Assembly (NCBI GenBank): GCA_036726225.1
Contig: DAIMCS010000001.1
Coordinates: 5,776 to 69,775 of the forward strand
From: Patescibacteria group bacterium
GTDB taxonomy: Bacteria > Patescibacteriota > Doudnabacteria > UBA920
Length of the DNA stretch: 64,000 nt
Direction: 5' to 3'
This document shows, piece by piece, positions 10,601-60,436 of the stretch. Positions within the stretch are counted from its first letter, which is position 1, and the number at the start of each line of letters is the position of its first letter. A model generated the notes under the pieces. That model saw only the letters and a list, made by a program, of their open reading frames with translations, was not told the DNA's origin and made no database searches. Made by a program: the position numbers and the translations under genes.

Positions 10601-10683
10601 ATAGCAAAGACGGCAAACAGATTTTGAATGTAAATTTAAACGCTGCGCTAAAAGAATATAAATCTACTTTTAAAGATTATTGA
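7654..10683 (+). CDS. purL: phosphoribosylformylglycinamidine synthase subunit PurL fused to two N-terminal PurS-like domains (PurS-PurS-PurL)
   Basis: 1009 aa; PurL core from about residue 230 (…LGRQPTDVELEALAQTWSEHCKH…). The N-terminal 200 aa contain two repeats ending in the PurS C-terminal signature (LLANPLIQKT and LHNPLIQKA, cf. PurS …LLANPVIE…). Confidence 0.9.
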   Translation: MTRLYTTYTITDPRARLKKNQFEALGLKNKIGAVYLADCYTIDAKLDSKKLEKAKHLLANPLIQKTHTNPSTLPATRFSHAIEIGFLPGVTDNVGHTARETLQDGAKIKFKPGQNVYTSQVFFISGKISFADANKIALSLHNPLIQKASITSWDDFKKTGLGSGIPKVKIKSSNKILKVNLNVGDEELAKLGKLGIPDYPIPAKAGIHKNGSPIKSGMEEKRRGPLALSLGELKAIQAHFKKLGRQPTDVELEALAQTWSEHCKHTIFSDPIDEIKEGIFKHYIKRATEVIRKKKGRKDFCVSVFTDNAGGISFDSKNIIAYKVETHNTPSALDPFGGSITGIGGVNRDALGFGLGAKPVANFYGFCLADPGDKTKLYRDKQLKNPMLSSRRIMDGVVAGINAGGNQSGIPTPLGFLFFDSRYRGKPLVFAGTLGLIPKKIGNKKSWVKKAESQDLIVMVGGRVGMDGIHGATFSSEGLSSHSPATAVQIGDPITQKKFSDTICKEARDLNLYNSITDCGAGGISSAVGEMAKEAGGCLVELDKVPVKYPGLAPWQIWISESQERMVLAVPKNKWQKFLKLMNARGVEATVIGKFTQDNKCVVKYNGKNVLDLEMEFLHNGRPKQQQTTRKSKPVTHKLILQNKKDFSADVLKMLARLNITSTEFVNTQYDHEVQGTSILKPLQGRGKINSEAAVIRPLLDSKKGVVLSYGLNPLLSETDAYKMSANSIDAAIRSAVAAGANVNYMAILDNFCWCSPHDPKRLYQLKKAAQACFDIATAYGTPFISGKDSMHNDFKGFGNDGKPLKISIPPTLLITTMGVIENVEKAISLDVKLPGDLLYILGETNNELAGSEYLNYVIPAQAGIQKLGITPSVNTDKNLKLYRSFYQAVQNNLVASAISVNRGGLAVAVSKSVMGGGLGVQIDLKNLPGNWKVNAEGLFSESAGRILVSVAPQNAQKFEKLMHGNVFAKIGQVGKNPKLVINSKDGKQILNVNLNAALKEYKSTFKDY

Positions 10684-10750
10684 TCTAGGTAGTTAGCTAA
10701 TTTATCAGCTGTTAAAACAGCCCATAAATGGGCTGACTACAAAACCCTAT

Positions 10751-11527
10751 ATGGCTAAATCGTTACCCAAAATCATTGTACTTGCCGGCTACGGCCTTAA
10801 CTGCGAAGAGGAAACCGCGGCTGCTTTTACTTTGGCCGGCGGTCTGGCCGAGATTGTACATATTAACGATTTAGTGGAAAATCCAAAAAAATTAATGAGC
10901 TACCAAATATTGGCAATACCGGGCGGCTTTTCTTACGGCGATGATTTAGGCGGAGGCAAGGCTTACGCCAACAAATTAAATAACCACTTAAAAAAATATT
11001 TAAAGGAATTTACTTCCAAGGATAAATTAGTAATTGGGATTTGTAACGGCTTTCAAATTTTAACCCAAGCCGGCCTGCTTCCCGGCGCCTTGGTTTTTAA
11101 TGACAATAATAGATACACGGACAGGTGGGTAGACTTACGCATACAATCAAGCAGTCCCTGGCTTACTGGAATTAAAACATTGTCAGTACCCATTGCGCAC
11201 GGGGAAGGTAAATTTGTTGCAGATAATAACACCTTATCAACAATCAAAAAAAACCGCCAAATTGCTGGTGTATACTATAAAGGCGACGTCTGTGCTTACC
11301 AAAACCTTGCAGCGAACCCTAACGGATCAACTGCCGATTTAGCTATTATGACCTCTGAAAACGGCAAAATCTTGGGCACTATGCCCCACCCCGAACGCGC
11401 TATGTTCTTTACCCAAAGTCCTATGTGGCCACTTATGAAGGAGAAGCTGATTCGGTCGGGTCAAAAATTGCCAAAGTATGGGGATGGGTTAAAGATATTT
11501 GTTAACGGAGTGAAATACTTTATTTAA
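10751..11527 (+). CDS. purQ: phosphoribosylformylglycinamidine synthase glutaminase subunit PurQ
   Basis: Class I glutamine amidotransferase motifs GICNGFQIL and HGEG. Confidence 0.9.
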   Translation: MAKSLPKIIVLAGYGLNCEEETAAAFTLAGGLAEIVHINDLVENPKKLMSYQILAIPGGFSYGDDLGGGKAYANKLNNHLKKYLKEFTSKDKLVIGICNGFQILTQAGLLPGALVFNDNNRYTDRWVDLRIQSSSPWLTGIKTLSVPIAHGEGKFVADNNTLSTIKKNRQIAGVYYKGDVCAYQNLAANPNGSTADLAIMTSENGKILGTMPHPERAMFFTQSPMWPLMKEKLIRSGQKLPKYGDGLKIFVNGVKYFI

Positions 11528-11531
11528 TCCT

Positions 11532-11994
11532 GCGAACTTACGAAATAATCGAACTACGAACCATGTATTCGCCTAATAAAATTAAAAAAACAGACCTCTT
11601 GTATCCAGAATTATCTTACAAAATTGTTGGAGCCCTTTTAGAAGTTAATAAAGAACTCGGGCCAAATCATCAAGAAAAACATTACCAGAAAGCAATAGCC
11701 GAAGAATTTAGACTAAAAGGAATTAATTTTAAGGAACAAGTTCCGATAAAATTGGTTTACAAAGATTTTCCAATCGGAATTTATTATGCCGATTTTATTG
11801 TTGAAGATAAAATTATCGTGGAATTAAAAACAGACCGATTTTTCACGAGAAAAAATATAGAGCAAACGCTCGCATATTTAAAAAGTTTTAATTTGAAACT
11901 TGGTATACTATCAAATTTTACTAAGAAAGGCTTAGAATATAAAAGAATTGTTAATTTAGAGACCGTTCGTAGTTCGGAAAAGTTCGTAAGTTCG
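11532..11994 (+). mobile_element. GxxExxY-gene cassette bounded by 29-bp imperfect terminal inverted repeats (CGAACTTACGAAataatCGAACTACGAAC … GTTCGTAGTTCGgaaaaGTTCGTAAGTTCG)
   Basis: IRs at 11532-11562 and 11965-11994 precisely bracket ORF 11563..12009 between purQ and purF; the ORF C-terminus is translated through the right IR. Confidence 0.5.
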
Positions 11995-12009
11995 AAGGAG
12001 CCAATATGA
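11563..12009 (+). CDS. GxxExxY-family protein (PD-(D/E)XK-like)
   Basis: VGALLEVNKELGPNHQEKHYQKAIAEEF matches the GxxExxY signature region; its stop overlaps the purF ATG. Confidence 0.75.
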   Translation: MYSPNKIKKTDLLYPELSYKIVGALLEVNKELGPNHQEKHYQKAIAEEFRLKGINFKEQVPIKLVYKDFPIGIYYADFIVEDKIIVELKTDRFFTRKNIEQTLAYLKSFNLKLGILSNFTKKGLEYKRIVNLETVRSSEKFVSSKEPI

Positions 12010-13427
12010 ATGACCTAAACCACAAATGCGGAATATTCGGAATTTACGGGAAAAACTTAGACGTAAGCCGTCTAACCTTTTACGGGCTTTTTGCATTGCA
12101 GCACCGGGGCCAAGAAAGCACCGGGATTGCTGTAGCCAATGGCTTTGGTCTAGATTGCTATAAAAACATGGGGCTGGTCACACAGGTTTACAATGAAGAA
12201 ACAATTCAAAGTCTTAAGGGTCATATTGCCATTGGGCATAACCGCTACTCCACCTCCGAAGGCTCGCATATTAAACACGCCCAGCCTGTAGTTATTAACC
12301 ATCATATTGCTTTGGCCCATAACGGCAATTTGCCTTCTGTAACCGAATTAAAAGAATTTTTAGAAGGCAAAGATATTTCCACCGACGACTGCTCAGATTC
12401 CGAGCTTATGGCCAAAGCCCTCGCCTACTATATAGAACACGGAAATAGCATTAAAGATGCAGTCATAAAAGCCTACCCACTTTTTACGGGCGCTTTTTGT
12501 TTAACTATTTTAACCAAAGACTCACTCATTGCGATTCGGGACAGCTACGGCATTAGGCCGCTTTCTTTGGGAAAAATAAACGGCAACACCACGGTTATTG
12601 CTTCAGAAACCTGTGCTTTCCACACTGTGGGTGCAAAGTTTGTGCGCGAAATTGAACCAGGCGAAATGGTGATTATAAATGAAAAAGGGATTGAATCGGT
12701 AAAACTATCGGATGCCAAAACCAAGTTGGACATTTTTGAGTTTGTTTATTTTGCCAGGCCAGACAGCCAAATTTTAGGCAAATCGGTTTACGAGGTTAGG
12801 AACAACTGCGGCATGAAGCTGGCCGAAGAATATCCTATTGATGCTGACATAATCGTCCCCGTTCCCGAAACCGCTTACCCCGTGGCCAGCGGCTACAGTA
12901 AAGCTTTGGGCATCCCAATGGAAATGGCGCTGGTTAAAAACCGCTACATCCACAGAACTTTTATTCAGCCCGAAGAACACAGCCGCGATTTGGGGGTAAA
13001 ATTAAAACTCACTCCCCTGCCCGAGGTCTTAAAGGGTAAAAAAATTGTAGTTATGGATGACTCTATAGTAAGAGGCACCACTTCCAGGCAGTTGGTTAAA
13101 ATGCTTTTTGAGGCCGGCTGTACGGAAGTCCATTTGTTAATTAGCTCGCCGCCGGTAAAGTACCCGGACTTTTATGGCATTGATACTCCCAGACAAAAAG
13201 ATTTAATCGCTGCGCACAAAACTGTGGAAGAAATTCGCCAATACCTGGGCGCAACCAGTTTGTATTTCCTTTCTTTAAAAGGCTTGCTCGAGTCTACCGG
13301 CGTTTCAGAAGACTTATTTTGCACTTCCTGCTTTACAGGAAATTACCCCATAGATTTAAAAGAACGTGCAGCCGAAATTAAAGAACCGGTCTATACCAAA
13401 GTGAAACCCCAAGGAGCATTATTTTAA
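12006..13427 (+). CDS. purF: amidophosphoribosyltransferase PurF
   Basis: N-terminal CGIFGIYG (Ntn glutaminase) and C-terminal PRTase domain. Confidence 0.9.
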   Translation: MNDLNHKCGIFGIYGKNLDVSRLTFYGLFALQHRGQESTGIAVANGFGLDCYKNMGLVTQVYNEETIQSLKGHIAIGHNRYSTSEGSHIKHAQPVVINHHIALAHNGNLPSVTELKEFLEGKDISTDDCSDSELMAKALAYYIEHGNSIKDAVIKAYPLFTGAFCLTILTKDSLIAIRDSYGIRPLSLGKINGNTTVIASETCAFHTVGAKFVREIEPGEMVIINEKGIESVKLSDAKTKLDIFEFVYFARPDSQILGKSVYEVRNNCGMKLAEEYPIDADIIVPVPETAYPVASGYSKALGIPMEMALVKNRYIHRTFIQPEEHSRDLGVKLKLTPLPEVLKGKKIVVMDDSIVRGTTSRQLVKMLFEAGCTEVHLLISSPPVKYPDFYGIDTPRQKDLIAAHKTVEEIRQYLGATSLYFLSLKGLLESTGVSEDLFCTSCFTGNYPIDLKERAAEIKEPVYTKVKPQGALF

Positions 13428-13440
13428 AATACACTATACT

Positions 13441-13476
13441 ACAATACATTCATACACGACTGTATGAATGTATTGT
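13441..13476. repeat. 36-bp perfect palindrome ACAATACATTCATACAcgacTGTATGAATGTATTGT immediately 5' of the YerC-like gene
   Basis: 16-bp perfect arms; a near-identical copy lies at 13975-14002 immediately 3' of the same gene. Confidence 0.7.
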
Positions 13477-13482
13477 CCGAAT

Positions 13483-13974
13483 ATGACAAAATTATCGCGT
13501 AAACACTTAGACCCAGAAAACTTTGGCCACTATGTTAACAACTTATGGTCGGCTTTTACTTTAATGGATTCTAAAGAAGATATTAAAACACTCTTTAAAG
13601 ATTTATTCACACACACCGAATACAAAATGTTTGCCAAGAGAATGGAGATCGCGAGACGGCTGCTAGAAGGTCAAACCTATGAGCAAATAGATAAAGAGTT
13701 ACACGTAACCGCAAGGACAATTACCACCGTAAACAATATTTTAGCTGAAAGGGGTGAGGGCTTACGCAAGGCTCACAATAAACTAAGTGCTTTGGAAGCA
13801 AAATATTTAGACAAACATCAGAAGATTACAAAAAACTTAGAAAACCCCTTCCGACAAAAGGCGAAAAGGAAAACCCTGGGAGGAGCCTTGCTTAAAGCCG
13901 GAATAATGGCCTTAGACAAAAGGATTAGCAAAAAATTAAAAGACAAAACCGCAAAAGACATGCTCGAAATTTAA
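13483..13974 (+). CDS. TrpR-like YerC/YecD-family DNA-binding protein with C-terminal basic extension
   Basis: LFKDLFTHTEYKMFAKRMEIARRLLEGQTYEQIDKELHVTARTITTVNNIL matches the YerC/TrpR-related HTH. Start set at the second ATG, outside the palindrome. Confidence 0.6.
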   Translation: MTKLSRKHLDPENFGHYVNNLWSAFTLMDSKEDIKTLFKDLFTHTEYKMFAKRMEIARRLLEGQTYEQIDKELHVTARTITTVNNILAERGEGLRKAHNKLSALEAKYLDKHQKITKNLENPFRQKAKRKTLGGALLKAGIMALDKRISKKLKDKTAKDMLEI

Positions 13975-14002
13975 CACATTCATACAGTCGTGTATGAATG
14001 TG
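13975..14002. repeat. second copy of the TGTATGAATGT palindrome (CACATTCATACAgtcgTGTATGAATGTG), followed by a T-run
   Basis: 12-bp perfect arms, then ttacttttttat. It lies between the YerC-like stop and the purN ATG. Confidence 0.7.
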
Positions 14003-14013
14003 ATTACTTTTTT

Positions 14014-14616
14014 ATGAAAACATTAACAATATTAATTTCGAATGTCGGCACGGGCACTAACCTCCAGGCTATTATAGACGGCACAAAATCCGGCCGGATA
14101 AAAGCTGAAATTGGCTCGGTTGTGTGTGACAAAGTAGACGCTCCGGGGTTAGAGCGGGCGAGACAAAATAATTTGCCAATTGAAATTTGCGCAAAAAAAG
14201 AAGAGTTACTCCCGCTTTTGCAAAAATTAAACCCTGATTATATTTGTTTAGCCGGTTGGAAACAAATAATACTCAACGAGGTAATAAACGCTTTCCCAAA
14301 TAAAATTTTAAATTTGCACCCGGGCTTAATTCCCGACAGCGAAGAGGGCACGGTAAAAAACCCGGACGATACAGACGGACTTTGGAATAAAGGTATGCTT
14401 ACCACAAAGGCTATCCAGAATTTTCTAGATCAAAAAGCTGGTTTTGCCGGATCTTCTATTCATTTTTTAACTTTAAATTTCGATTTTGGGCCCGTTCTCG
14501 GCCGCTGTTTTGAAAAAGTTGAGACCAACGATACAGTAGAAACGCTTTACGCAAGGCTAAAAAAGAAAGAAAATGCTTTGTATGTTGAGGTTTTAGAAAG
14601 GCTAACTAATGGGTAA
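14014..14616 (+). CDS. purN: phosphoribosylglycinamide formyltransferase PurN
   Basis: MKTLTILISNVGTGTNLQAIID… N-terminal folate-binding motif. Start moved to ATG 14014, outside the palindrome. Confidence 0.85.
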   Translation: MKTLTILISNVGTGTNLQAIIDGTKSGRIKAEIGSVVCDKVDAPGLERARQNNLPIEICAKKEELLPLLQKLNPDYICLAGWKQIILNEVINAFPNKILNLHPGLIPDSEEGTVKNPDDTDGLWNKGMLTTKAIQNFLDQKAGFAGSSIHFLTLNFDFGPVLGRCFEKVETNDTVETLYARLKKKENALYVEVLERLTNG

Positions 14617-15964
14617 TATCATGTCCGCCGAAGGCGCCCGCCTGCCCGGCCGGCAGGGATCCGCCTCTGGCGGAAAAAAAATCCTAATAATTGGCGGAGG
14701 TGGACGTGAGCATGCTTTGGCTTGGAAAATTAAACAATCTCCGCAAGTGGAGAAAATTTTTATTGCGCCCGGTAACGCAGGGACGGCAGAGGTTGGGGAA
14801 AATGTCGCTATACCTATTAGTGATATAGGCGAGCTTGCCCAGTTTGCTTTAAAAAGCCAAATTGACCTTACTGTAGTTGGCCCGGATGACGCCCTGGCCG
14901 CCGGGATAGTAGACGCTTTTTTGGAAAAAAATTTAAAAATTTGGGGGCCGGTTAAAGCTGCTTCCAAAATAGAATGGTCAAAAAGTTTTGCTAAAGAATT
15001 AATGAGCCGGCAAAACATTCCCACGGCCCATTACAAAACCTTCACAGACTATAACCTCGCCTGGGCTTACATTAAGCCTCAATTCTTGCCTGTGGTAATT
15101 AAAGCCTCCGGCTTGGCATTAGGCAAAGGCGTAACCATTTGCCACACTATGGAAGAAGCCGAAGAGGTGTTAAGAGATTTAATGATAAATAAAACCCTTG
15201 GACAAGCCGGGACAGAAGTGGTCATTGAACAATTTCTACAAGGACCGGAATTCTCTATCCACGCGTTTTGTGACGGAGAAAATTTTAAACTTCTGCCGCC
15301 CGCCCAAGACCACAAATCCATATTCAACGGAGACAAAGGCCCTAACACCGGCGGTATGGGCACCATTGCTCCCCTACCTTGGGTTAGCCAAGAGCTGCTA
15401 AACGAAGTCGCAGAAAAAATAGTTAAACCAACCCTGGAGGGCTTAAAAAAACTAGGTTCGCCTTTTGTTGGGCTACTGTATCCGGGGTTAATGCTAACCA
15501 AAGAAGGACCAAAAGTTATTGAATTTAACGCCCGGTTTGGGGACCCTGAAACCCAAAGTTTAATGCGATTGCTCAAAACTGACCTTTTGGAAATTTTGGA
15601 AGCGTGTGTGGATGGTAATTTGGATAAATTAAATATAGAGTGGAACAACAAATACGCCTGCTGCATTGCCCTGGCCTCGGGCGGATATCCGGGAAAGTAT
15701 GAAAAAGGATTACCCATTTCTGGAATCGAAGAAGCCTCAAAAATGGAAAATGTAATTGTTTTCCACGCCGGAACAAAAATCAGCGATGATCAACTTGTCA
15801 CTAATGGCGGCAGAGTTTTAGGAGTCAGCGTAACAGCTGATAATTTAAAATCCGCGCTTGATAAAGCCTACGAAGCAGCAAAATTAATCCACTTTGATGG
15901 AATGCATTACAGAACGGACATCGGCGCCAAATCGCTTGACTACTCACTAACCACTACTCACTAA
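14609..15964 (+). CDS. purD: phosphoribosylamine--glycine ligase PurD, with an N-terminal roughly 19-aa extension encoded by a GC-rich hairpin insert
   Basis: KILIIGGGGREHALAWK… ATP-grasp fold; the extension …LPGRQGSASGGK precedes the canonical start region. Confidence 0.9.
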   Translation: MGNIMSAEGARLPGRQGSASGGKKILIIGGGGREHALAWKIKQSPQVEKIFIAPGNAGTAEVGENVAIPISDIGELAQFALKSQIDLTVVGPDDALAAGIVDAFLEKNLKIWGPVKAASKIEWSKSFAKELMSRQNIPTAHYKTFTDYNLAWAYIKPQFLPVVIKASGLALGKGVTICHTMEEAEEVLRDLMINKTLGQAGTEVVIEQFLQGPEFSIHAFCDGENFKLLPPAQDHKSIFNGDKGPNTGGMGTIAPLPWVSQELLNEVAEKIVKPTLEGLKKLGSPFVGLLYPGLMLTKEGPKVIEFNARFGDPETQSLMRLLKTDLLEILEACVDGNLDKLNIEWNNKYACCIALASGGYPGKYEKGLPISGIEEASKMENVIVFHAGTKISDDQLVTNGGRVLGVSVTADNLKSALDKAYEAAKLIHFDGMHYRTDIGAKSLDYSLTTTH

Positions 15965-15990
15965 CCACTACTCACTAACCACTACTCTTA
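15947..15990. repeat. 14-bp tandem repeat (actcactaaccact) x3 at the purD stop / HAD-gene upstream
   Basis: Direct reading of ctactcactaaccactactcactaaccactactcactaaccactactc. Confidence 0.8.
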
Positions 15991-16667
15991 TGATAAAACT
16001 TGTAGCTTTTGACTGGAACGGCACATTAATAGCCGACACTAAGCTGGCCGTTGCCGGTGATAACTACGCTGTTAAACCTTATTTAAGAAGAAAAATAACT
16101 TTAAAATTATTGCAGGCCCATTTCCAAATACCCATAATTCACTATCTAATGGCTTTGGGTATGGACAGGCAAGCTTACTTAAACCACAGCATAGAAATTA
16201 ATGGCAGATTCAACAAACATTATGAAGCTAGAGTAAGTAACTGCCGAACACGCGCGGGAGTAAGGGTTTGTTTACAATATTTGGCAGAAAATAATATTAA
16301 AACGGTAATTTACAGCAATCATGTGACAAATTATATAATAAAACAGCTTAAAAGATTAAAAATAGAAAAATATTTCGACGTGGTATTAGCCCGCGAAGAT
16401 GACGATCATTCGCATTTACACAGCAGGGGCAAAGCCGAAAAGCTTAAAAATTTTATTAAAAGGCATAAATTAAAACCAAATGAAATTATATCAGTCGGCG
16501 ATTCCGAAGAAGAAATAGAAATTGGGAAAGATGGGGGTTACCACACTGTAGCAATAACAGGAGGCTATAATTCTACTTCGCGATTGAGAAAAACCCATCC
16601 AGATTTTTTAATAAGTAATATGTTAGAATTAAAAAAGATAATTAAGAAATTAAATTATGAGAGGTGA
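15990..16667 (+). CDS. HAD-family hydrolase (phosphoglycolate phosphatase-like)
   Basis: MIKLVAFDWNGTLI motif I; GDSEEE motif IV. Confidence 0.7.
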   Translation: MIKLVAFDWNGTLIADTKLAVAGDNYAVKPYLRRKITLKLLQAHFQIPIIHYLMALGMDRQAYLNHSIEINGRFNKHYEARVSNCRTRAGVRVCLQYLAENNIKTVIYSNHVTNYIIKQLKRLKIEKYFDVVLAREDDDHSHLHSRGKAEKLKNFIKRHKLKPNEIISVGDSEEEIEIGKDGGYHTVAITGGYNSTSRLRKTHPDFLISNMLELKKIIKKLNYER

Positions 16668-16926
16668 AAAAAGAGAGTTTGGGGGGAAGAATCCTGAGCT
16701 GGATTTGCATGGGATGAGCGTTGATCAAGCGAAATCAGAAATTGATAGTTTTTTAATAGAGCAGATAAATGCTGGGAATGGTTTAGTAAAAATCATTCAT
16801 GGATGGGGTACAGGCAAACTACAAAAGCAAATCGGCGAGTACCTAAGGACACACGAAGATGTAAAACAGTTACACCCAACCGCAAACCCCGGACAACCTT
16901 ATTTTTTAGTAGAAATAAAATTATAA
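16657..16926 (+). CDS. Smr-domain protein
   Basis: LDLHGMSVDQA…IHGWGTGKL Smr signature. Confidence 0.7.
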   Translation: MRGEKREFGGKNPELDLHGMSVDQAKSEIDSFLIEQINAGNGLVKIIHGWGTGKLQKQIGEYLRTHEDVKQLHPTANPGQPYFLVEIKL

Positions 16927-16941
16927 TTAATTACTTAATTT

Positions 16942-17451
16942 ATGAACAAAGTTGGAATAATAATGGGTAGTGATAGTGACCTAAAAGTAATGCAGGAAGC
17001 TGCCAAAGTTTTAGAAGAATTTGGTGTGGCCTTTGAAATTACTGTTTGCTCGGCGCACAGAACGCCGGCGCGCGCCCACGAATATGCTTCTACTGCAAAA
17101 GAAAGAGGGCTTAAAGTTATAATCGCCAGCGCGGGTGGTGCGGCACATTTAGCCGGAGTTATGGCAGCAAACACAACCTTGCCGGTTGTTGGCGTGCCAA
17201 TTGACTGGAAATTAAACGGCCTGGATTCCCTACTCTCTACCGCGCAAATGCCTCCGGGCGTGCCGGTTGCCTCAATGGGAATTGACGGCGGAAAAAATGC
17301 GGGGCTATTTGCCGTCCAGATTTTAGCCGCGGCTGATGAAAATTTAGCAAAAAAATTGGCAGATTATAAAAATCAGATGGCGGAACAAGTTAACACTAAA
17401 GCCAAAAAGTTGGAAGAGTTAGGTTATAAAAAATATTTGGGAGAAAAGTAA
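16942..17451 (+). CDS. purE: 5-(carboxyamino)imidazole ribonucleotide mutase PurE
   Basis: VGIIMGSDSDL…, AGGAAHLAGV, PVVGVP motifs. Confidence 0.9.
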   Translation: MNKVGIIMGSDSDLKVMQEAAKVLEEFGVAFEITVCSAHRTPARAHEYASTAKERGLKVIIASAGGAAHLAGVMAANTTLPVVGVPIDWKLNGLDSLLSTAQMPPGVPVASMGIDGGKNAGLFAVQILAAADENLAKKLADYKNQMAEQVNTKAKKLEELGYKKYLGEK

Positions 17452-17485
17452 AAAGCGGGCCTGCTACAGACCCGCCGGCTAAACA
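17451..17485. terminator. bidirectional terminator hairpin (GCGGGcctgctacagaCCCGC), with a T-run on the minus strand
   Basis: Hairpin flanked by an A-run (plus strand) and T-run (minus strand); serves purE and the convergent small gene. Confidence 0.45.
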
Positions 17486-17764
17486 CTAAATACCCGGAAC
17501 GCCGAAAGGAAAAGTCGAACCCGAACGCGCCTCAACAGACAAAGCCAGTTCCTCATTCATTTCCTCCGGTGTTTCCCTGCATCTGGCAATGAATCCCGAA
17601 AAGCCGGTCAGCTCGGCAGCCAGCCTCTCCCGGAAGCGTTTAATTGAGGCTGAACTTTCTGCCCCAAGATCATCGGATTTCGTAGAAGCTTGCCCGAGCG
17701 AATCCAAAGCTTTTGCCAAATGGCCTTCTGCGAAAAGAAGTTCATTTATAATCGATGGGTCCAT
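17486..17764 (-). CDS. hypothetical small protein (92 aa), GC-rich, divergent from purM
   Basis: Strong SD (AAGGAGG) before ATG 17764; no recognizable domain; about 52% GC versus about 42% in the surroundings. Confidence 0.4.
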   Translation of the reverse strand: MDPSIINELLFAEGHLAKALDSLGQASTKSDDLGAESSASIKRFRERLAAELTGFSGFIARCRETPEEMNEELALSVEARSGSTFPFGVPGI

Positions 17765-17812
17765 GTGCATCCTCCTTACTGGAAAGAATAATATAATATA
17801 ACAGAACAATCA

Positions 17813-18955
17813 ATGCCCAGCCAATATTCTAAAGACGGCGTGAACGTAGAAGAAGAATCTAAATTCAGCTCGTTTGCCGGAAAAATTTGTAAAGGTTCCT
17901 ACCAAAACTCCCCCTTTGTGGAAGTCCACGACTTTTCCGGCGGGCATTTTAGGGGCCCGCGTCCGTTTACTTTTAAAAACTTGCCCGAAGGCTACTTTAT
18001 AGAAGCCACAACTGACGGCATGGGCACCAAAGGCGTGCTTGTAGACGCAGCAAAAACCCATGAGCAGGCGGCTTACGATATTGTTGCTATGACTTCCAGT
18101 GACGTTACCCGTTTTGGCGGCATCCCTTTGGTCTTTATTAATGTGCTCGACGTTGTCGCGGTTGGAAATGAAGGCGACGAAGTCAGCAACCAATATAAAA
18201 AACTTCTATCGGGTTTAGGTAAAGTATCGGGCGAAGCAAAAATAGTTTCGCTTAAAGGTGAAACCGCGCAAATGGGAGTGTTTGTTGGTTCGGACTGGCA
18301 AGAGTCTAAAACCCGCTTTAACTGGTCAGCCACAATGATTGGCGCGTACCACAAAGATAAAATGATAACCGGAGAATCACTGCGAGACGGCCAGGTTATT
18401 ATCGCTCTAAAAGAACAAGGATTTAGGTGCAACGGCATAAGTGCGGTTAGAGCTGCGCTTAAAGATAAATTTGGCGAGAGATGGTACGAAAATAAAGATG
18501 CTCAAAAAAGCATAAAACTTGCGGCCGCCCCTTCCCTTCTTTATGACGTATTTATAAACACCATACACGGCTGGTACGACAAAAATTTTCAGGCTGAAGT
18601 AAAAATCCACGGTCTGGTCCACCTTTCCGGCGGCGGCATAAAAGAAAAATTGGCAAAAGATATGTTGCTTCCCAGGTCTCTTTCGGCCGAACTTACGGAT
18701 TTATACGATCCGCCGCAAATTATGAAAGACTGTGCCGCCTGGCATAATATAGATGACGAAGAATTTTACGAAGTCTGGAACGGCGGCCAGGGTATGCTGC
18801 TAATAGTAAAGGAGAAAGATGCCGAAACCACAATAAAAAGAGCGAACGATTTTGACCTACAGGCAAAAATTTGTGGTAAAATAACCAAAGCAGCAAAACC
18901 ACAAGTTGTAATTGATTCAAAATTAAATCCTGGCAAGAAAATTATTTATGAATAA
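17813..18955 (+). CDS. purM: phosphoribosylformylglycinamidine cyclo-ligase PurM (AIR synthetase)
   Basis: N-terminal YSKDGVNVEE and PurM-like N- and C-terminal domains. Confidence 0.85.
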   Translation: MPSQYSKDGVNVEEESKFSSFAGKICKGSYQNSPFVEVHDFSGGHFRGPRPFTFKNLPEGYFIEATTDGMGTKGVLVDAAKTHEQAAYDIVAMTSSDVTRFGGIPLVFINVLDVVAVGNEGDEVSNQYKKLLSGLGKVSGEAKIVSLKGETAQMGVFVGSDWQESKTRFNWSATMIGAYHKDKMITGESLRDGQVIIALKEQGFRCNGISAVRAALKDKFGERWYENKDAQKSIKLAAAPSLLYDVFINTIHGWYDKNFQAEVKIHGLVHLSGGGIKEKLAKDMLLPRSLSAELTDLYDPPQIMKDCAAWHNIDDEEFYEVWNGGQGMLLIVKEKDAETTIKRANDFDLQAKICGKITKAAKPQVVIDSKLNPGKKIIYE

Positions 18956-19913
18956 AGAAGTTATATCGCAAGTCCTGCATAAAGTTATTGAAACCACTAA
19001 TTTTAAACACATTGGTCAAAGGCGCCAGGGCAAAGTGCGCGATGTCTACACGCAGCCGGATAAAATTATTTTGGTTTCCACCGACAGGTACAGCGCGTTT
19101 GATAGAAACTTGGCGTTAATTCCTTTCAAAGGCCAAATACTTACTCAAGTAAGCCGCTGGTGGTTTGAAAAGACCGAGGATATTATCCAAAACCATTTAA
19201 TCAGCTCTCCCGATCCAAATGTAGTTGTAGTAAAAAAATGTTCGGTGATCCCTATTGAGATGGTCGTGCGAGGCTACATTACAGGCGTTACGGGCACGAG
19301 CCTTTGGACACTATACAACAACGGCCAGCGGGATTTTGGCGACTTTGTCTTGCCGGAAGGTATGAAAAAAAACCAAAAACTGGAAAAACCGGTTTTAACG
19401 CCCACCACAAAGTCTGACGACCACGACGCACCGCTTACCACTAAAGAAATTATCGAAAAACAAATTGTATCAAAAGAGCTTTGGGAACAGTTGGCAGACA
19501 CCGCCATAAAACTTTTTACCCGCGGCCAGGAACTTGCGTTACAACACGGACTTATTTTAGTGGATACTAAATATGAATTTGGTTTAACGGAAGACGGTAA
19601 ATTGATGTTGATTGATGAAATCCATACACCCGACTCTTCGCGATATTGGCAGGCAGACTCCTATCAATCCAGGATAGACCAAGGGCAAGAGCCGCAAAAT
19701 TTCGACAAAGAATTTCTGCGTCTTTGGTTTAAACAAAACTGCGATCCATACAAAGACGAAGTATTACCACAAGCTCCGGCGGATATGATAGCCGAACTTT
19801 CTTCCCGCTACATTCAAATTTTCGAACAAATTACCGGGCAAAAATTTGAAGCGGATTTAAACACCCCCGCACTTCAAAGAATAGAAAACAACCTTAATAG
19901 CTATCGGTTGTAA
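18948..19913 (+). CDS. purC: phosphoribosylaminoimidazole-succinocarboxamide synthase PurC (long form)
   Basis: GKVRDVY…LVSTDRYSAFD SAICAR synthetase motifs; overlaps purM by 8 nt. Confidence 0.9.
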   Translation: MNKEVISQVLHKVIETTNFKHIGQRRQGKVRDVYTQPDKIILVSTDRYSAFDRNLALIPFKGQILTQVSRWWFEKTEDIIQNHLISSPDPNVVVVKKCSVIPIEMVVRGYITGVTGTSLWTLYNNGQRDFGDFVLPEGMKKNQKLEKPVLTPTTKSDDHDAPLTTKEIIEKQIVSKELWEQLADTAIKLFTRGQELALQHGLILVDTKYEFGLTEDGKLMLIDEIHTPDSSRYWQADSYQSRIDQGQEPQNFDKEFLRLWFKQNCDPYKDEVLPQAPADMIAELSSRYIQIFEQITGQKFEADLNTPALQRIENNLNSYRL

Positions 19914-19918
19914 ACATG

Positions 19919-20325
19919 CCTCCCTCCCCTGGAGGGGGAGGGCTGGGGAGGGGTGAATGACAAACCACACAACTCAAATATCAAGAAAGCTGCGCAATAA
20001 TCTAACCGAAGCAGAAAAAAAGCTATGGTATTATTTACGCAACAACAATCTCGGTGAAAAATTCAGAAGACAGCAACTTATTGGTACGTATTACGTCGAC
20101 TTTATCTGCCTAAAAAAATACTTAATTATTGAAGTTGACGGCGGGCAGCATTACGATTCTGCTGATGATAAAATTAGAGATAATTTTTTCAAAAAAGAAG
20201 GTTTTACAGTTTTAAGATTTTGGAACAATGAAGTTTTAGAAAACATTGAGGAAGTGTTAGAAAAAATCAAGGCTTATTTATAATTCATCACCCTCCCCTA
20301 ACCCCTCCCCTCAAGGGAGGGGAAT
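19919..20325 (+). mobile_element. GGGAGGGG palindromic element (copy E1) carrying a DUF559 endonuclease gene in its central loop
   Basis: Left arm 19919-19956 (CCTCCCTCCCCtggaGGGGGAGGGctgGGGAGGGGTGA) and right arm 20284-20325 (TCACCCTCCCCtaaCCCCTCCCctcaaGGGAGGGG) match the empty copies at 25145, 30988 and 35941. The ORF fills the spacer exactly, with its ATG abutting GGTGA and its TAA abutting TTCATCACCC. Confidence 0.6.
19957..20283 (+). CDS. DUF559 endonuclease-domain protein (Vsr-like / PD-(D/E)XK fold)
   Basis: 108 aa; YYVDF…IIEVDGGQH…D..R…L…G..VLRFWN signature of DUF559. Confidence 0.8.
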   Translation: MTNHTTQISRKLRNNLTEAEKKLWYYLRNNNLGEKFRRQQLIGTYYVDFICLKKYLIIEVDGGQHYDSADDKIRDNFFKKEGFTVLRFWNNEVLENIEEVLEKIKAYL

Positions 20326-20334
20326 AAAACAATT

Positions 20335-21723
20335 ATGCTTACATCCATATCCCCCATTGACGGCCGCTACGAAAAACAAACAGATGCACTAAAAGCCTTT
20401 TTTAGTGAGCAGGCTTTAATGCGTTACAGGATTATTGTTGAAGGCGAATATTTTATTGCCCTTTCCCAAAGCAAACTGGGCAAAAGAAAACTTTCTGATA
20501 AAGAAAAAAAGTTAGTGCGCTCCTTATACGAGCCCAAAGGAAGTGATGCACAAATTATTTCCGATATTGAACGAAAAGGCCACAAAGGCATCCCGGCAAC
20601 AAACCACGATGTTAAAGCCGTGGAATATTTTATTAAACTAAAACTTAAAAATACTTCTTTAAAAAATGTTTTGGAATGGGTGCATTTTGGTCTAACTTCC
20701 GAAGACGTAAACAACCTCTCATATGCCTTAATGCTTAAAGACGGTATTACCCGGGGCCTAATGCCTTCACTTAATGAAATTATTCTTAACTTAACCTCAC
20801 AGGCAAAAAAATACAAAAACTTGCCTATGCTCAGCCGAACCCACGGTCAGCCTGCGTCCCCAACCACTTTTGGCAAAGAAATGAGGGTCTTTAAAGAAAG
20901 ATTGCAAAGACAAGCAAACAAATTAAAATCCCAAACCATCCTCTGTAAATTAAACGGTGCCAGCGGCAACTACAACGCGCATATGGCCGCATTTCCAAAA
21001 GTTAACTGGATTAAATTCTCCCAAAAATTTATTAGTCATCTAAATTCCCTTGGACCCAAAACCTTTTTGAATCTAGAACCTAACCTCTACACCACGCAAA
21101 TTGAACCGCACGACTCATACATAGAAATTTTTGATACTTTCCGCCGCATCAACACCATTTTAGTAGACTTTAACCAGGACATTTGGCGCTATATAAGCGA
21201 TGGCTGGATTACGCAAAAAACAGTAGCCGGAGAAATTGGCTCTTCTGCTATGCCCCATAAAGTCAACCCAATTAACTTTGAAAACAGCGAAGGCAACTTA
21301 GGTTTGGCTAACGCGCTATTTAATCATTTTGCTAATAAGTTGCCCATATCAAGATTGCAAAGAGATCTTTCCGATTCCACCGTGCAAAGAAATTTTGGCA
21401 CGGCTTTGGCACACTCTATAATTGCTTATAAATATTTACTAAAAGGTTTGGCGAAAATTTCTCCCGACCCTCAAAAGATGGCGGCGGATTTGGAAAAACA
21501 CCCGGAAGTTATTGCCGAAGCCATTCAAACCGTTTTGCGCAGAGAAGGAGTAAAAATGCCTTACGAACAGTTAAAAGAACTCACGAGGGGCGAGAATGTG
21601 ACACTCAATGACATTCATCGATTTATAAACAATTTGGAAATCAGCGACAGGGTAAAAAAGGAACTTAAAGAATTTACTCCCCACAGTTACACCGGACTGG
21701 CAAGCAGGCTTGCCCAATCTTAA
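20335..21723 (+). CDS. purB: adenylosuccinate lyase PurB
   Basis: SPIDGRY N-terminus; fumarate-lyase signature region (GSSAMPHKVNP). Confidence 0.9.
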   Translation: MLTSISPIDGRYEKQTDALKAFFSEQALMRYRIIVEGEYFIALSQSKLGKRKLSDKEKKLVRSLYEPKGSDAQIISDIERKGHKGIPATNHDVKAVEYFIKLKLKNTSLKNVLEWVHFGLTSEDVNNLSYALMLKDGITRGLMPSLNEIILNLTSQAKKYKNLPMLSRTHGQPASPTTFGKEMRVFKERLQRQANKLKSQTILCKLNGASGNYNAHMAAFPKVNWIKFSQKFISHLNSLGPKTFLNLEPNLYTTQIEPHDSYIEIFDTFRRINTILVDFNQDIWRYISDGWITQKTVAGEIGSSAMPHKVNPINFENSEGNLGLANALFNHFANKLPISRLQRDLSDSTVQRNFGTALAHSIIAYKYLLKGLAKISPDPQKMAADLEKHPEVIAEAIQTVLRREGVKMPYEQLKELTRGENVTLNDIHRFINNLEISDRVKKELKEFTPHSYTGLASRLAQS

Positions 21724-25136: not shown

Positions 25137-25144
25137 AAAATAAA

Positions 25145-25229: not shown

Positions 25230-25240
25230 AAGAAAGTACC

Positions 25241-25834: not shown

Positions 25835-25927
25835 CCCCATTTCGACCGAACGTAGTGAGGGAGAAATCTGTTAAAAATCTGCACTGACGATTTACAGATC
25901 TCTCGCTTCGCTCGAGATGGTAATTAT

Positions 25928-30987: not shown

Positions 30988-31092
30988 ATTCCCTCCCCTT
31001 GAGGGGGAGGGATTGGGAGGGGTGAAGTCAAAATCATCACCCTCCCCCTGCCTGCCGGCAGGCAGGCTAACCCCTCCCATCCAGGGAGGGGA
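30988..31092. repeat. GGGAGGGG palindromic element copy E3 (empty; extra internal palindrome CCTGCCTGCCGGCAGGCAGG)
   Basis: Same arms as E1 and E2; spacer agtcaaaatca. Confidence 0.8.
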
Positions 31093-32614: not shown

Positions 32615-32736
32615 CAAGTCGAAATAGCTGAGTCCGCATTTAAAACAATCCCATAAGATTAAAACACTGTGGCAAGCTTGTGCGATTAAAATAATAGACT
32701 TTGATTATTAATCCCCGCCTCTGGCGGAAACTAATT

Positions 32737-35835: not shown

Positions 35836-35927
35836 TGTGTCATTCCGGTCCGCCTTAGGCGGATAATTTTATCCGGAATCTATTCATTGGCTAATTTCTG
35901 GATCCCGGATCGGTGTCCGGGATGACA
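35836..35927. mobile_element. MITE-like element with terminal inverted repeats TGTCATTCCGG … CCGGGATGACA and internal hairpins (TCCGCCttaGGCGGA; ATCCCGGAtcggtgTCCGGGAT)
   Basis: Direct reading. Related ends recur at 36383-36452, 36487-36520, 59095-59120 and 62316-62407. Confidence 0.5.
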
Positions 35928-40462: not shown

Positions 40463-40888
40463 ATGAATAAGAATATGCCCGCCAAAGGCGGGTCCGCCTC
40501 TGGCGGAAAAGGTACATACGTTGACGGGTTTTTACTCGTTGTTCCAAAAAACAAAATAGCTGAATACAAAAAAATGGCTGCGTGGGGCAAAAAAACCTGG
40601 ATGAAATACGGCGCGCTGGACTACAAAGAATGCCGGGGAGATGACTTGCATCCCAAAGGCACTCCGGGAATGAAACCCCGCTCTTTTAAAGACGCGGCCA
40701 AAGCCAAAGGCAGTGAGACCGTGTGGTTTTCATTCATAGTTTTCAAGTCCAAAAAACACCGTGACGAAGTAAACAAAAAAGTTATGAGCGACCCGGCTAT
40801 GAACGACCCTAAATGGAAAGACAAACCCATGCCAATGGATATGAAACGGTTTGTCTACGGCGGATTTAAAGTTGAAATTGGTACTTAA
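40463..40888 (+). CDS. DUF1428-family protein with an N-terminal hairpin-encoded extension (…PAKGGSASGGKG-TYVDGF…)
   Basis: YVDGFLLVVPKNKIAEYKKMAAWGKKTWMKYGALDYKECRGDD matches DUF1428. Confidence 0.7.
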   Translation: MNKNMPAKGGSASGGKGTYVDGFLLVVPKNKIAEYKKMAAWGKKTWMKYGALDYKECRGDDLHPKGTPGMKPRSFKDAAKAKGSETVWFSFIVFKSKKHRDEVNKKVMSDPAMNDPKWKDKPMPMDMKRFVYGGFKVEIGT

Positions 40889-59069: not shown

Positions 59070-59134
59070 AGAAAGAGATTCCTCGCTCGTCCGCCAACTG
59101 GCGGAGCACTCGCTCGGAATGACGCCGTGAGGGG

Positions 59135-60436
59135 TTAATAATCCCTAAGTTTATTTATATCAATATGTTCGCGTATGCGCTCTAACGCCTTGCTCTCGAT
59201 TTGCCTAATGCGTTCGCGGGTAACGCCGAACTCTTCGCCCACTTCTTCCAAAGTATGAGTAACGCCGTCTTCCAACCCAAAACGCATTTTTAAAATTTTC
59301 TGCTCGCGTGGATCAAGGTCGTTTAAAATTCCGCCCACGTATTCTTTTAAAATTTGCCTGCCGGCAACTTCGTTGGGCTTTGTGGTATCTTCGTCTACTA
59401 TAAAATCTCCAAGCGATGAGTCTTCGCCTTCATCTTCCCCAACGGGTGAGTCTATGGAAACGGTTTCCTGCGAAATTTTCTTTAGATGATAAACCTTTTC
59501 CACCTCTATGCCCATTTCCGCGGCAATCTCTTCGGGCAGCGGTTCACGTCCCAAATCTTGCACCAAAGATCTTTCGGCCTGTGCATATTTGTTTAAAGTT
59601 TCCACCATATGCACCGGAATGCGAATGGTGCGGCTCTGGTCTGCCAGTGCGCGGGTAATGGCCTGGCGAATCCACCACGTGGCGTAGGTTGAAAATTTGT
59701 AACCTTTAGTCCAGTCAAACTTTTCTACCGCTCTAAACAGTCCTAGATTTCCTTCCTGGATTAAGTCCAAAAGGCCAAGGTTGCGGCCCATATATTTTTT
59801 TGCAATTGATACAACCAAACGCAGGTTAGCTTCCGTAAGTTTTTTGCGCGCGGCTACGTCGCCCTTTGCAATTCTTTTGGCTAAATCCACTTCTTCTTCA
59901 CCTTTAAGCAGCGGCACTTTACCAATCTCACGCAAATACATTTGAATGCTGTCGTCGTAAATATCGCCCAAATCAAAAGCGTCTACAGCTTCTTCCTGCT
60001 TCTTTTTCCTGCCTTTTCCTTTAGTAGTCGGCGCTTCGGTTTCTTGGGCGGGTTTGTTCTGCTCCCACACACTGGCAACCTCCTGGTCAACAATTTCAAT
60101 ACCGCGCTTCTCCAACAGGCTCATTACATTTTCTAACTGTTTTACGTCATCTTCAAAATACGGGAGCGCATGCAAAATTTCCGCTTCCGTTACAAAGCCC
60201 CGCTCGCCTGCTTTGGCCATAAGTTTAACCAGCAACTTTTCGGTATCTACAACCGGAGCAGCCACAGGTAAACCGGCCTGGGCAGCTTTGGCACCCAAAG
60301 CCTTTGCTTTTGCTTTCAAACGCTTTTTAATAAACTTCTGCGCTTTGCGTTTAGCCTTTTTCCCGGGCCTTAATTTTTTAAGTTTTGACTTTCCGCCAAA
60401 GGCGGATCCACCTCTGGTGGACTTTTTCTTAGCCAT
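59135..60436 (-). CDS. rpoD: RNA polymerase sigma-70 factor RpoD with a basic N-terminal extension containing a hairpin-encoded [10 protein letters not shown] segment
   Basis: Regions 1.2-4 (…[13 protein letters not shown]…; region 4.2 [22 protein letters not shown]). Confidence 0.9.

Follow-up and report, generated by a model that had tools for sequence, protein, structure and literature searches.

A GC-rich double-hairpin palindrome within protein-coding genes of a Patescibacteria group bacterium and its association with GIY-YIG/tRNA cassettes

The DNA analyzed here is a 64-kb stretch from a Patescibacteria group bacterium (hereafter, the window), in which a short GC-rich hairpin motif, TCCGCC-YYT-GGCGGA, recurs within and beside unrelated genes. 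An earlier note on this DNA had placed the motif at four sites, namely in purD, in a DUF1428 gene, in rpoD, and in the 5' untranslated region (UTR) of a RibD_C (DHFR-family) gene, and all four are present in the sequence as it stated. A search of the window for TCCGCCYYTGGCGGA with at most 2 mismatches returned 9 matches compared with 0.38 expected from dinucleotide-preserving shuffles, and 0 of 100 shuffles reached that number.

Hairpin copies in the window and their absence from orthologs

The purD copy is a composite insert of 51 nucleotides (nt) on the plus strand (14624..14674) that directly follows the start codon ATG at 14621 and is translated as SAEGARLPGRQGSASGG. It consists of a first unit, TCCGCCGAAGGCGCC (14624-14638, with one stem mismatch), followed by CG; a nested palindrome, CCTGCCCGGCCGGCAGG (14641-14657), followed by GA; and a second unit, TCCGCCTCTGGCGGA (14660-14674), after which the sequence continues AAA AAA ATC. 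The length of 51 nt results from this second palindrome, of the form CCTGCC-N5-GGCAGG, being nested at the centre of the doublet, a three-hairpin architecture that also occurs in two loci from other genomes (L042 and L070). The insert folds as one long stem with the nested hairpin at its tip (-43 kcal/mol for a 105-nt context). Its 3' flank is an A-run, AAA AAA A (14675..14681, plus strand), made up of the native Lys-Lys codons of PurD, whose orthologs begin M-(N)-K-K-I-L-I-I-G.

The other two coding copies are doublets of 30 nt. In the DUF1428 gene, CCCGCCAAAGGCGGG (40478-40492) and TCCGCCTCTGGCGGA (40493-40507) together occupy 40478..40507 on the plus strand, between the ATG at 40475 and AAA GGT, and are translated as PAKGGSASGG. 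In rpoD, TCCACCAGAGGTGGA plus TCCGCCTTTGGCGGA lie at 60392..60421 on the minus strand, after codon 5 (ATG GCT AAG AAA AAG) and before AAG, and the first unit keeps its stem through a paired G:C to A:T change. The RibD_C (DHFR-like) gene carries a single 15-nt unit, CCCGCCTCTGGCGGA, in its 5' UTR (32714..32728, plus strand), at the place where a Shine-Dalgarno sequence would lie; six bases separate the A-run of the motif from the ATG at 32737, and the unit folds as an isolated 5-bp hairpin. The three coding copies are all read as G-S-A-(S/F)-G-G-K, just as the earlier note had it. Its statement that a second GC hairpin precedes each copy holds for those three and fails for the 5'-UTR copy, which is a single unit, and its picture of one conserved and one variable hairpin has to give way to a doublet of two related 15-nt hairpins.

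We also found copies that had gone unmentioned. A single intergenic unit, TCCGCCTTAGGCGGA (35849..35863), is nested at the stem-loop junction of a palindrome ATTCCGG...CCGGAAT (35842-35879), and a variant hairpin with a 4-nt loop, TCCGCCAACTGGCGGA (59090..59105), lies 3' of rpoD, nested in the larger palindrome CATTCCGAGCGAG...CGAGCGAGGAATC. A further candidate, possibly a decayed half, is found at 43810-43824.

Pfam alignments place the conserved protein cores downstream of the inserts. More specifically, position 2 of the GARS_N profile aligns at residue 24 of the purD open reading frame (ORF) and position 1 of the DUF1428 profile at residue 18 of its ORF, and RibD_C begins at residue 2 of the protein starting at ATG 32737; the identity of RpoD was confirmed as well. 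No ATG, GTG or TTG occurs between the motif and the conserved cores KILIIGGGG (purD) or YVDGF (DUF1428), so that the hairpin DNA must lie within the coding sequence of both genes, and downstream alternative start codons were rejected on the same grounds. The idea that GGCGGA serves as the Shine-Dalgarno sequence of a non-canonical start was also discarded, as it fits only purD (ATC). An intrinsic terminator of the upstream gene would show a GC hairpin followed by a T-run, and the polarity here is wrong, since the sense-strand hairpins are preceded by T, are followed by an A-run, and lie inside ORFs. A scan of the window with Rfam 15 matched only a tRNA at 32065-32136, and the motif matched no RNA family.

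The earlier note had described the N-terminal extensions as absent from orthologs, and comparison with the nearest proteins bears this out. None of the 119 nearest PurD orthologs (58-76% identity) has the extension, all of them beginning M-x(1-3)-(I/V/L)L(I/V)IG, and neither does any of 119 DUF1428 orthologs, the nearest of which (83-84% identity) begin MKGTYVDGF. Aligning the filled DUF1428 site with the empty site of one ortholog (P0243) at the DNA level placed the right edge of the insert at GGA|AAAGGT. In both purD and DUF1428, the ancestral ATG directly precedes the insert and an AAA codon directly follows it.

For RpoD, the pattern SA[KR]GG[SP]A[SF]GG was found in only 8 of 120 proteins, one being that of the window and the others being 78-91% identical to it. 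Within the Lys-rich N-terminal tail, the insert is found at four or more different positions, and it is missing from the closest relatives; close sets that differ in the insert include P0238 and P0239 versus P0230, and P0122 and P0123 versus the window. Palindromic DNA underlies the insert in every RpoD case that was fetched (four, L125-L128): L125 has a perfect 30-mer, TCCGCCAAAGGCGGATCCGCCTTTGGCGGA; L126 shares the insertion codon of the window, with the loops in opposite order; in L127, part of the copy has decayed; and in L128, one of the loops holds an additional nested hairpin. The RpoD pattern is one of repeated, independent insertion.

Structure, distribution and reading frame across genomes

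To sample copies from other genomes, the exact 20-mer GGRTCCGCCTYTGGCGGAAA was scanned in one genome per species (GTDB set), which yielded at least 120 stretches, compared with ~4 chance matches expected for 596 Gb under uniform base composition. About 60 of these matches are from Patescibacteria, spread over at least 15 named candidate classes. Among the matches listed, the others come from Omnitrophota (12), records labelled Gammaproteobacteria (9), the Ignavibacteriota/Bacteroidota/Chlorobi (8), Planctomycetota (6), other members of the Planctomycetes-Verrucomicrobia-Chlamydiae group (5), Elusimicrobia, Chloroflexota and Deltaproteobacteria (2 each), and Desulfotomaculaceae, Margulisiibacteriota, Auribacterota and Zixibacteria (1 each), with 10 unclassified. 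An 8-kb locus holds 1 to 2 solitary copies, irregularly placed, which differs from CRISPR or other interspaced arrays, whose copies are evenly spaced with unique spacers between them. Text searches of the literature returned no paper with any of four unit 15-mers or five peptides, and a keyword search combining candidate phyla radiation (CPR)/Patescibacteria with palindromes returned nothing specific.

All 120 matches listed are metagenome-assembled or single-amplified genomes (MAGs or SAGs), and the consensus 36-mer gave 0 matches in 72,556 plasmids and 0 in 5,426 E. coli genomes. This is what would be expected if the motif were an artefact of the assembly, binning or library preparation of MAGs, an explanation to which we give next to no chance. 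The purD allele with the insert was assembled independently from different samples and with different assemblers (JGI 3300012231, SRR6448376, and SRR6262253), and the frame is preserved in 69 of 84 ORF copies. Several matches lie on long-read contigs of 0.8 to 1.8 Mb, including ones of 1.6 to 1.8 Mb, and one is in a single-cell genome; with contigs of this length, mis-binning cannot account for the spread over phyla. A phage or plasmid vehicle was rejected in view of the plasmid and E. coli counts and the single match of the 20-mer in 2.9 million viral contigs.

The unit that emerges is 30 nt long and consists of two 15-nt hairpins, (T/C)CCGCC-NNN-GGCGG(A/G), arranged head to tail as a near-perfect palindrome centred on GGATCC. 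When the flanks of 121 copies were aligned, the second 15-nt hairpin was found directly 5', with stem positions 79-91% conserved and the loop free, and the information content fell to background outside -14..+20; the flanks of different copies are unrelated to one another. Third codon positions are 85-91% conserved, the same as first and second positions. The element is thus a discrete unit with sharp boundaries that is conserved at the DNA level and not at the protein level. It is found nested with other small palindromes at hairpin loops or centres, in both directions (purD, L128, and 35849 in the window).

The outer stem pair of the unit left unconstrained by the search covaries (T-A in 88 copies, C-G in 18, and mismatched in 11; Fisher p = 4e-12), and variants such as TCCACC..GGTGGA (rpoD in the window), TCCCCC..GGGGGA and TCCGCT..AGCGGA retain pairing. 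In addition, CCCGCC..GGCGGG units adjoin TCCGCC..GGCGGA units. Covariation and mixed neighbouring units together imply that two separate hairpins are maintained, and not one long one. The minimum-energy fold of the consensus is a single long hairpin (-24.4 kcal/mol for the 36-mer, z = -5.5), but in spite of being energetically best, a 15-bp hairpin was rejected as the conserved structure, because it is the two separate hairpins that covariation favours.

We recorded 126 copies among the matches listed, 84 of them in ORFs of 90 codons or more (taking the longest ORF by a simple rule) and 42 in non-coding DNA. The 84 ORF copies are strongly biased toward one frame, with 69 in f1, 7 in f2 and 8 in f3 (p = 5e-20), and f1 reads Ser-Ala-x-Gly-Gly-Ser-Ala-x-Gly-Gly in either orientation. 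The arms are symmetric at the codon level, TCC and GGA being reverse complements of each other, as are GCC and GGC, and a unit spans five codons; the same small, flexible, stop-free peptide is therefore encoded in both orientations, and SAKGGSASGG and its opposite-strand counterpart are one DNA sequence read on two strands. The hosts of these copies are genuine housekeeping genes and include those for topoisomerase I (TopA), class I aminoacyl-tRNA synthetases (aaRS), RecG, GAPDH, TsaD, UvrB, a glycosyltransferase and a PfkB kinase, and two copies within one gene were found in PheT and in an S41 peptidase. It appears that the insert is translated, given that its length is divisible by three, that one frame is strongly preferred and that no alternative start is available. 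The peptide being small, flexible and stop-free would explain why only f1 survives selection and why copies persist at protein termini and in essential enzymes.

A frame nearly always giving SAxGGSAxGG, together with the benign nature of Gly/Ser/Ala-rich loops and the persistence of copies in essential proteins, could also suggest that SAxGGSAxGG(K) is itself a selected protein module (a linker, tag or modification site) and the palindrome incidental. We hold this to be extremely unlikely. Synonymous positions are as conserved as non-synonymous ones, the stems covary, the same peptide results from either orientation, which is expected of a palindrome, and a third of the copies (42 of 126) are non-coding, with a few in other frames; the peptide is absent from nearly all orthologs and was not found in the literature text search. 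Third-position conservation, stem covariation, the non-coding third and the orthologs without an insert instead argue for in-frame insertion of repeated DNA.

The earlier note had also raised the alternative that the hairpins are cis-regulatory translation-initiation structures common to unrelated genes, which would tune ribosome loading. In the window, the three coding copies all begin 3 to 15 nt downstream of the AUG, and the fourth takes the Shine-Dalgarno position of RibD_C, and the consensus fold given above is stable. Across genomes, a bias toward gene 5' ends is real as well, because 14 of the copies in 49 complete ORFs lie within 30 residues of the N-terminus compared with ~10% expected (p = 4e-4), a roughly threefold enrichment, with 4 copies within 30 residues of the C-terminus. 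This bias is nevertheless moderate, as ~70% of in-frame copies are internal or C-terminal, at a distance of over 30 residues from the N-terminus (e.g., in TopA, RecG, UvrB, TsaD and aaRS), and a third of all copies are intergenic. Furthermore, close orthologs of the host genes lack the element or carry it elsewhere, the host genes share no common pathway, and an RNA structure needs no strict frame bias. We therefore consider a shared role in initiation very unlikely, and this part of the note is not supported.

What copies do share is a target site, T-N^N-A: 67-85% of copies have T at -2, and A stands at +2. Positions +1 to +3 favour A, the base adjoining the element on the 5' side is T more often than C and C more often than G, being almost never A, and the commonest flanks are TTT^AAA, TTC^AAA, ATG^AAA, GTC^AAA and GTT^AAA. 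Direct 3-nt flank repeats occur in 1 of 92 copies, which indicates no target duplication; a 3-nt duplication that the AAG/AAG and AAA/AAA flanks in RpoD might suggest was rejected on this count and ascribed to the Lys-rich context. At least eight sites are of the ATG^AAR type, including purD, DUF1428, GAPDH (L074), L016 and L107 as well as internal Met-Lys sites in RecG (L058), TsaD (L088) and L077. A preference for ATG^AAA and Lys-rich tails, combined with N-terminal tolerance of ten extra residues, would account for the three N-terminal coding copies of the window.

Two observations on individual loci stand apart. L029 and L037, from genomes labelled as different candidate classes, carry the doublet at the same N-terminal position of a class I aaRS (WEKSGYF^NPD), which represents either a hot spot (TTY^AAT) or an inherited copy. 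The longest doublet-containing ORFs hold an extra Pfam domain, NlpC/P60 inside PheT in L018 (4444-6930, minus strand) and His_Phos_1 after the aaRS core in L029 (4843-7077, plus strand), and these may be real fusions or run-ons from simple ORF calling.

GIY-YIG nuclease cassettes at tRNA genes

We compared, all against all, 1,786 ORFs from 120 loci (838 kb around 126 copies). No transposase family recurs in these 838 kb, the search being confined to the loci around the copies. The largest recurrent family is instead a small GIY-YIG nuclease (PF01541), which is also the only recurrent nuclease. In four loci (L041, L043, L097, and L122), a truncated tRNA copy that adjoins the GIY-YIG ORF contains the doublet in its D-loop or anticodon loop, and the tRNA is found intact beyond the opposite end of that ORF. 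In two of them, L043 (Omnitrophota) and L122 (Patescibacteria), the doublet is 35 nt long, identical in sequence and placed at the same point of the D-loop.

The reciprocal analysis took 80 metagenomic loci (L129-L208, 251 kb) encoding relatives of this nuclease. These ORFs (80-100 amino acids) have a same-strand tRNA gene within 300 nt in 45 of the 80 loci, mostly immediately 3', and most of the 45 also have a partial duplicate of the tRNA 5' of the ORF, interrupted by a GC palindrome. The palindromes are of two kinds. The first is the 20-mer CCTGCCTGCCGGCAGGCAGG, identical in L134, L135, L149, L174 and L178 and with variants in six more loci; the second comprises TCCGCC-type hairpins, either as doublets in the T-loop at GGTTC^GAATC (L139, L167, and L173) or as single CCCGCC hairpins on both sides of the ORF (L131, L132, L142, and L183). 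Hence, the two palindrome families combined in the purD insert are exactly those that mark GIY-YIG cassettes. Tandem arrays of cassettes were found in L131, L183 and L041.

Collectively, these loci establish a statistical association between the element and GIY-YIG/tRNA cassettes. Within the 251 kb, 18 of 19 TCCGCC-type units lie within 250 nt of a GIY-YIG ORF (p = 7e-11), and GC palindromes with a stem of at least 6 bp occur within 150 nt upstream of 30 and downstream of 22 of the 80 ORFs, compared with a background of 0.043 per 150 nt. In a neighbour-joining tree of the 80 proteins, palindrome type is clade-specific, and a large clade without a tRNA neighbour has no palindromes. By their layout, the cassettes look like tRNA-targeting homing cassettes that restore their target; in the literature, we found no description of a tRNA-linked, palindrome-carrying GIY-YIG cassette.

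The first palindrome kind is also found alone in the window. A solo copy of CCTGCCTGCCGGCAGGCAGG, the family nested in the purD insert, lies in an intergenic repeat copy (31046..31066), and alignment with the sister repeat copy at 25140-25240, which lacks it, reveals a clean 20-nt presence/absence difference. This difference is direct evidence that the CCTGCC 20-mer moves as a solo unit. A shorter copy of the same family is found at 36004-36019.

The observations gathered so far include sporadic occurrence among close orthologs, different positions in the same gene, either orientation and a cross-phylum range. We consider it likely that the motif is a very small, non-autonomous, GC-rich selfish double-hairpin palindromic element, tolerated by its hosts as a flexible loop, and not a translation-start regulator. 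Such an element would be copied into DNA breaks at T-run^A-run sites, either by a nuclease acting in trans or by templated break repair primed on its A/T flanks. A palindrome flanked by T and A could prime repair from either broken end, the two new strands being complementary; copying from both ends would require no transposase, leave no duplication and impose no fixed orientation. In yeast, breaks have been documented to receive short templated, fold-back insertions (PMC11724301). The breaks and the transfer across phyla may be supplied by the associated free-standing GIY-YIG cassettes, the most likely partner, whose tRNA-loop targets are universal. The effect on the host is predicted to be probably near neutral, and a possible side effect is less efficient translation initiation, owing to a stable hairpin from position +4 of the mRNA.

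More tentatively, we raise the possibility that the palindromes are dispersed satellites of an undescribed mobile system, in which GIY-YIG cassettes home into conserved tRNA loops, restore the tRNA and carry a lineage-specific palindrome. As tRNA loops are universal, such a cassette could cross phyla and seed each new genome with its palindrome, which might then spread through nuclease-made breaks into T-run^A-run sites, including those in essential protein genes.

The constant, clade-specific presence of palindromes at the cassette edge inside tRNA loops could also mean that the palindrome is a selected DNA site, spread by some system for its own use. It might be bound or recombined by a widely conserved protein (lox/dif-like, GGATCC being flanked by 12-14-bp arms), act as an uptake-type signal, or provide the cassette with its recognition or immunity site. 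Its dyad symmetry of 30-34 bp is typical of sites for dimeric DNA-binding proteins, its sequence is identical in many phyla and its stems are maintained. We regard this as unlikely, in that covariation backs two separate 15-nt hairpins and not one 30-bp duplex, loops vary freely, copies decay in some genes (L127), and insertions are scattered in unrelated genes without positional logic.

Several points weigh against the selfish-element reading and its link to the cassettes. We observed no filled/empty polymorphism between near-identical strains, and contigs with the exact PurD of the window carry the insert by construction; recent movement of the TCCGCC doublet is thus read from its sporadic distribution among proteins 78-91% identical. 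The sample is biased in that the search 20-mer fixes one unit and the AAA flank, leaving only the other unit and flank unbiased, and ORF boundaries depend on the longest-ORF rule. Translation through the element is deduced from frame bias, not from observation. Taxon labels are those of the record titles, some of which look unreliable: CAYZEI01 is labelled Saccharibacteria, yet its RpoD is 80% identical to the Doudnabacteria-like RpoD of the window. Cross-phylum sequence identity and maintained stems could reflect hairpins selected for a function. As for the cassettes, the 64-kb window has no GIY-YIG gene, solo copies are nearly missing from the flanks of the GIY-YIG loci, which are too sparse to judge a within-genome link between cassette and solo palindromes, and the doublets next to GIY-YIG genes may have inserted secondarily into tRNA DNA that was already dead.

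Comparison with known repeats, and other palindromes in the window

The element resembles several described repeats in behaviour and is a member of none of them; in kind, it belongs with short palindromic selfish repeats. Mitochondrial double-hairpin elements (DHEs; Allomyces, Schizosaccharomyces) and the hairpin elements of sponges are GC-rich, consist of two adjacent hairpins and occur in AT-rich compact genomes. DHEs are found in intergenic DNA, structural RNA genes and each other, without flanking duplication; identical copies across species have been read as recent transfer, and how they move is unsolved (PMC10085805, PMC2800124). Our element has the same two 6-bp stems with 3-nt loops, nests likewise and leaves no duplication, but DHEs are organellar and confined to a few fungal and sponge lineages, whereas the element in the window is bacterial, spans a dozen or more phyla and lies mostly in protein-coding genes, in one frame and with codon-symmetric arms. 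We liken it to DHEs by function only and claim no sequence relationship. Paquin et al. 2000 reportedly described DHEs of 26 to 79 nt.

Yeast mitochondrial GC clusters are described as short GC-rich palindromic mobile inserts (PMC4478555), and double-strand breaks and gene conversion are implicated at them. Together with the translational-bypass inserts known as byps, they share with our element a GC-rich palindromic nature, an AT-rich genomic setting and landings in coding sequence; the element of the window differs in having no target repeat and in a frame bias that argues for read-through. Its inserts are multiples of 3, stop-free and, for 82% of ORF copies, in one frame, unlike the bypass elements of T4 gene 60 and the byps, which stay untranslated, have take-off and landing codons that match, carry a stop after the take-off codon and are free of any frame requirement. 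A GC cluster in var1 is said to have been described by Weiller et al. 1989, and the byps of Magnusiomyces by Lang et al. 2014. GC clusters come with short repeats of the target, and the ribosome skips byps, which can lie out of frame.

Rickettsia palindromic elements (RPEs), reportedly introduced by Ogata et al. 2000, are said to insert in frame into unrelated protein genes and to yield peptides tolerated at the surface. They are 100-150 bp long, form families RPE-1 to RPE-8 and are restricted to Rickettsia, and we know of no transposase for them. The parallel drawn in the earlier note holds insofar as ours are lineage-specific in-frame palindromic DNA insertions, selfish in appearance and in one frame in 69 of 84 ORF copies in unrelated genes (TopA, RecG, UvrB, aaRS, GAPDH, PurD, and RpoD). 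It does not extend to membership, given a unit of 30 nt (51 nt with the nested palindrome), a range of many phyla and the same peptide in either orientation; size and host range set the two apart.

In bacteria, repetitive extragenic palindromic (REP) sequences form doublets (REPINs) and, with the REP-associated tyrosine transposase (RAYT), a 'REPtron' in which dispersed copies of a short palindrome match those flanking a single-copy nuclease gene (PMC3116915, PMC3733652). The GIY-YIG association is evidence of the same kind. REPs differ in being extragenic and species-specific, whereas 84 of our 126 copies lie in ORFs; the GTAG/CGTC head is absent from our element, which ends in (T/C)CCGCC...GGCGG(A/G) with T-rich and A-rich flanks. 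Moreover, REPs pair with a Y1/HUH transposase of the IS200/IS605-like type, whereas no transposase recurs near window-type copies and the flanked gene encodes a GIY-YIG nuclease. Miniature inverted-repeat transposable elements share the inverted symmetry but come with a target-site duplication that a DDE transposase generates; here, direct 3-nt flank repeats are found in 1 of 92 copies, and the filled-versus-empty comparisons reveal a clean 30-nt gain.

Free-standing GIY-YIG homing endonuclease genes in tRNA gene clusters are represented by SegB of phages T4 and T6 (PMC13096335, PMC2988022). SegB resembles the cassettes in being a small GIY-YIG gene among or beside tRNA genes with local duplication, and differs in that SegB-type genes are phage genes for which no palindromic satellites are reported. 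The candidate cassettes described here lie in cellular contigs, abut a duplicated, interrupted tRNA and carry lineage-specific GC palindromes. The small dispersed repeats (SDRs) of cyanobacteria also resemble our element, being tiny mobile-looking repeats that nest and occur in conserved genes, but they are limited to cyanobacteria and have different sequences. Elhai et al. 2008 reportedly described SDRs as 21-27 nt long, nested and inside conserved genes, and we know of no codon-symmetric in-frame design reported for them. Distinctive of the present element, then, are its codon-symmetric in-frame design, its cross-phylum identity and its candidate GIY-YIG/tRNA partnership.

If the selfish-element reading is true, Gly/Ser/Ala-rich N-terminal or internal segments in Patescibacteria and other uncultivated bacteria would be selfish DNA and not function, which matters for gene-start calling, alignment and structure prediction. 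The same 30-nt sequence occurs in rpoD, topA, recG, uvrB and aaRS genes of many phyla, and its codon-symmetric design may let it escape selection; the inserts would also be handy presence/absence markers for strain- and lineage-level tracking in metagenomes. The GIY-YIG link is a candidate mechanism for short palindromic repeats (RPEs, DHEs, and GC clusters) whose movement has gone unexplained for decades. Should the satellite reading hold, it would represent a REPtron-like partnership built on a different nuclease, and no smaller mobile DNA would be known to range across phyla; it might also point to how mitochondrial DHEs and GC clusters move.

The window holds other palindromes in or near genes. 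In purL (7654-10683), in-frame GC hairpins occur at 8250-8306 (ATTCCCGCGAAAGCGGGAAT plus TCCCCGATCAAGTCGGGGA, read as IPAKAGIHKNGSPIKSG) and at 10228-10250 (ATTCCCGCGCAGGCGGGAAT, read as VIPAQAGIQ). They belong to a sister family, TCCCGC..GCGGGA, and a related doublet peptide, SRGAGSRSAGK, is found in several RpoD tails. Another peptide, (S)PAGRQAVLPLP, recurs in the RpoD N-terminal tails of P0133, P0138, P0140, P0172, P0177, P0178 and P0207; we expect it to be encoded by the palindrome CCTGCCGGCAGGCAGG, in which case that family would also insert in frame. Beside DUF1428, a 3-dmu-9_3-mt/PhnB-like gene has a 26-residue N-terminal extension, MENNTTPQKDDQPRRPEGSGPRPQASG (40907-40987), its Pfam domain starting from residue 28, and this extension contains a different GC palindrome, GGTCGGGGCCCCGACC, and so is another in-frame N-terminal hairpin insert. 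An OmdA-family gene starts with MTKKAMVRQAHHKV (33894-33935), and its Pfam domain starts from residue 21; we take the VRQAHHK at this start to be the translation of another widespread GC-rich repeat. A 721-residue ORF (42373-44538) is bracketed by 17-nt hairpins of identical sequence, CCGACCTTAGAGGTCGG, at 42194-42210 and 44568-44584.

A repeat family, CCCTCCCCTTGAGGGGGAGGG..GGGAGGGGTGAA ... ATCACCCTCCCC..CCCTCCCATCCAGGGAGGGG, occurs at 19920-20325, 25146-25232, 30990-31095 and 35943-36020. It flanks a 108-residue DUF559 (Vsr-like endonuclease) ORF between purC and purB, and the three other copies are short and 'empty'; judging by these sequences, they look like full and ORF-less forms of one small cassette. 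Two further small ORFs are wedged into operons, namely a PDDEXK_3 nuclease-fold ORF between purQ and purF (11563-12009) and a '23S rRNA intervening sequence protein' ORF between the genes for cytochrome oxidase subunits II and I (22722-23117). The surrounding genes comprise an almost complete de novo purine pathway at 7654-21723 (purL, purQ, purF, purN, purD, purE, purM, purC, and purB) and a haem-copper oxidase operon at 21794-26257 (COX2/COX_ARM, COX1, COX3, and COX4_pro), both of which are, to our knowledge, unusual for a Patescibacteria lineage with reduced genomes.

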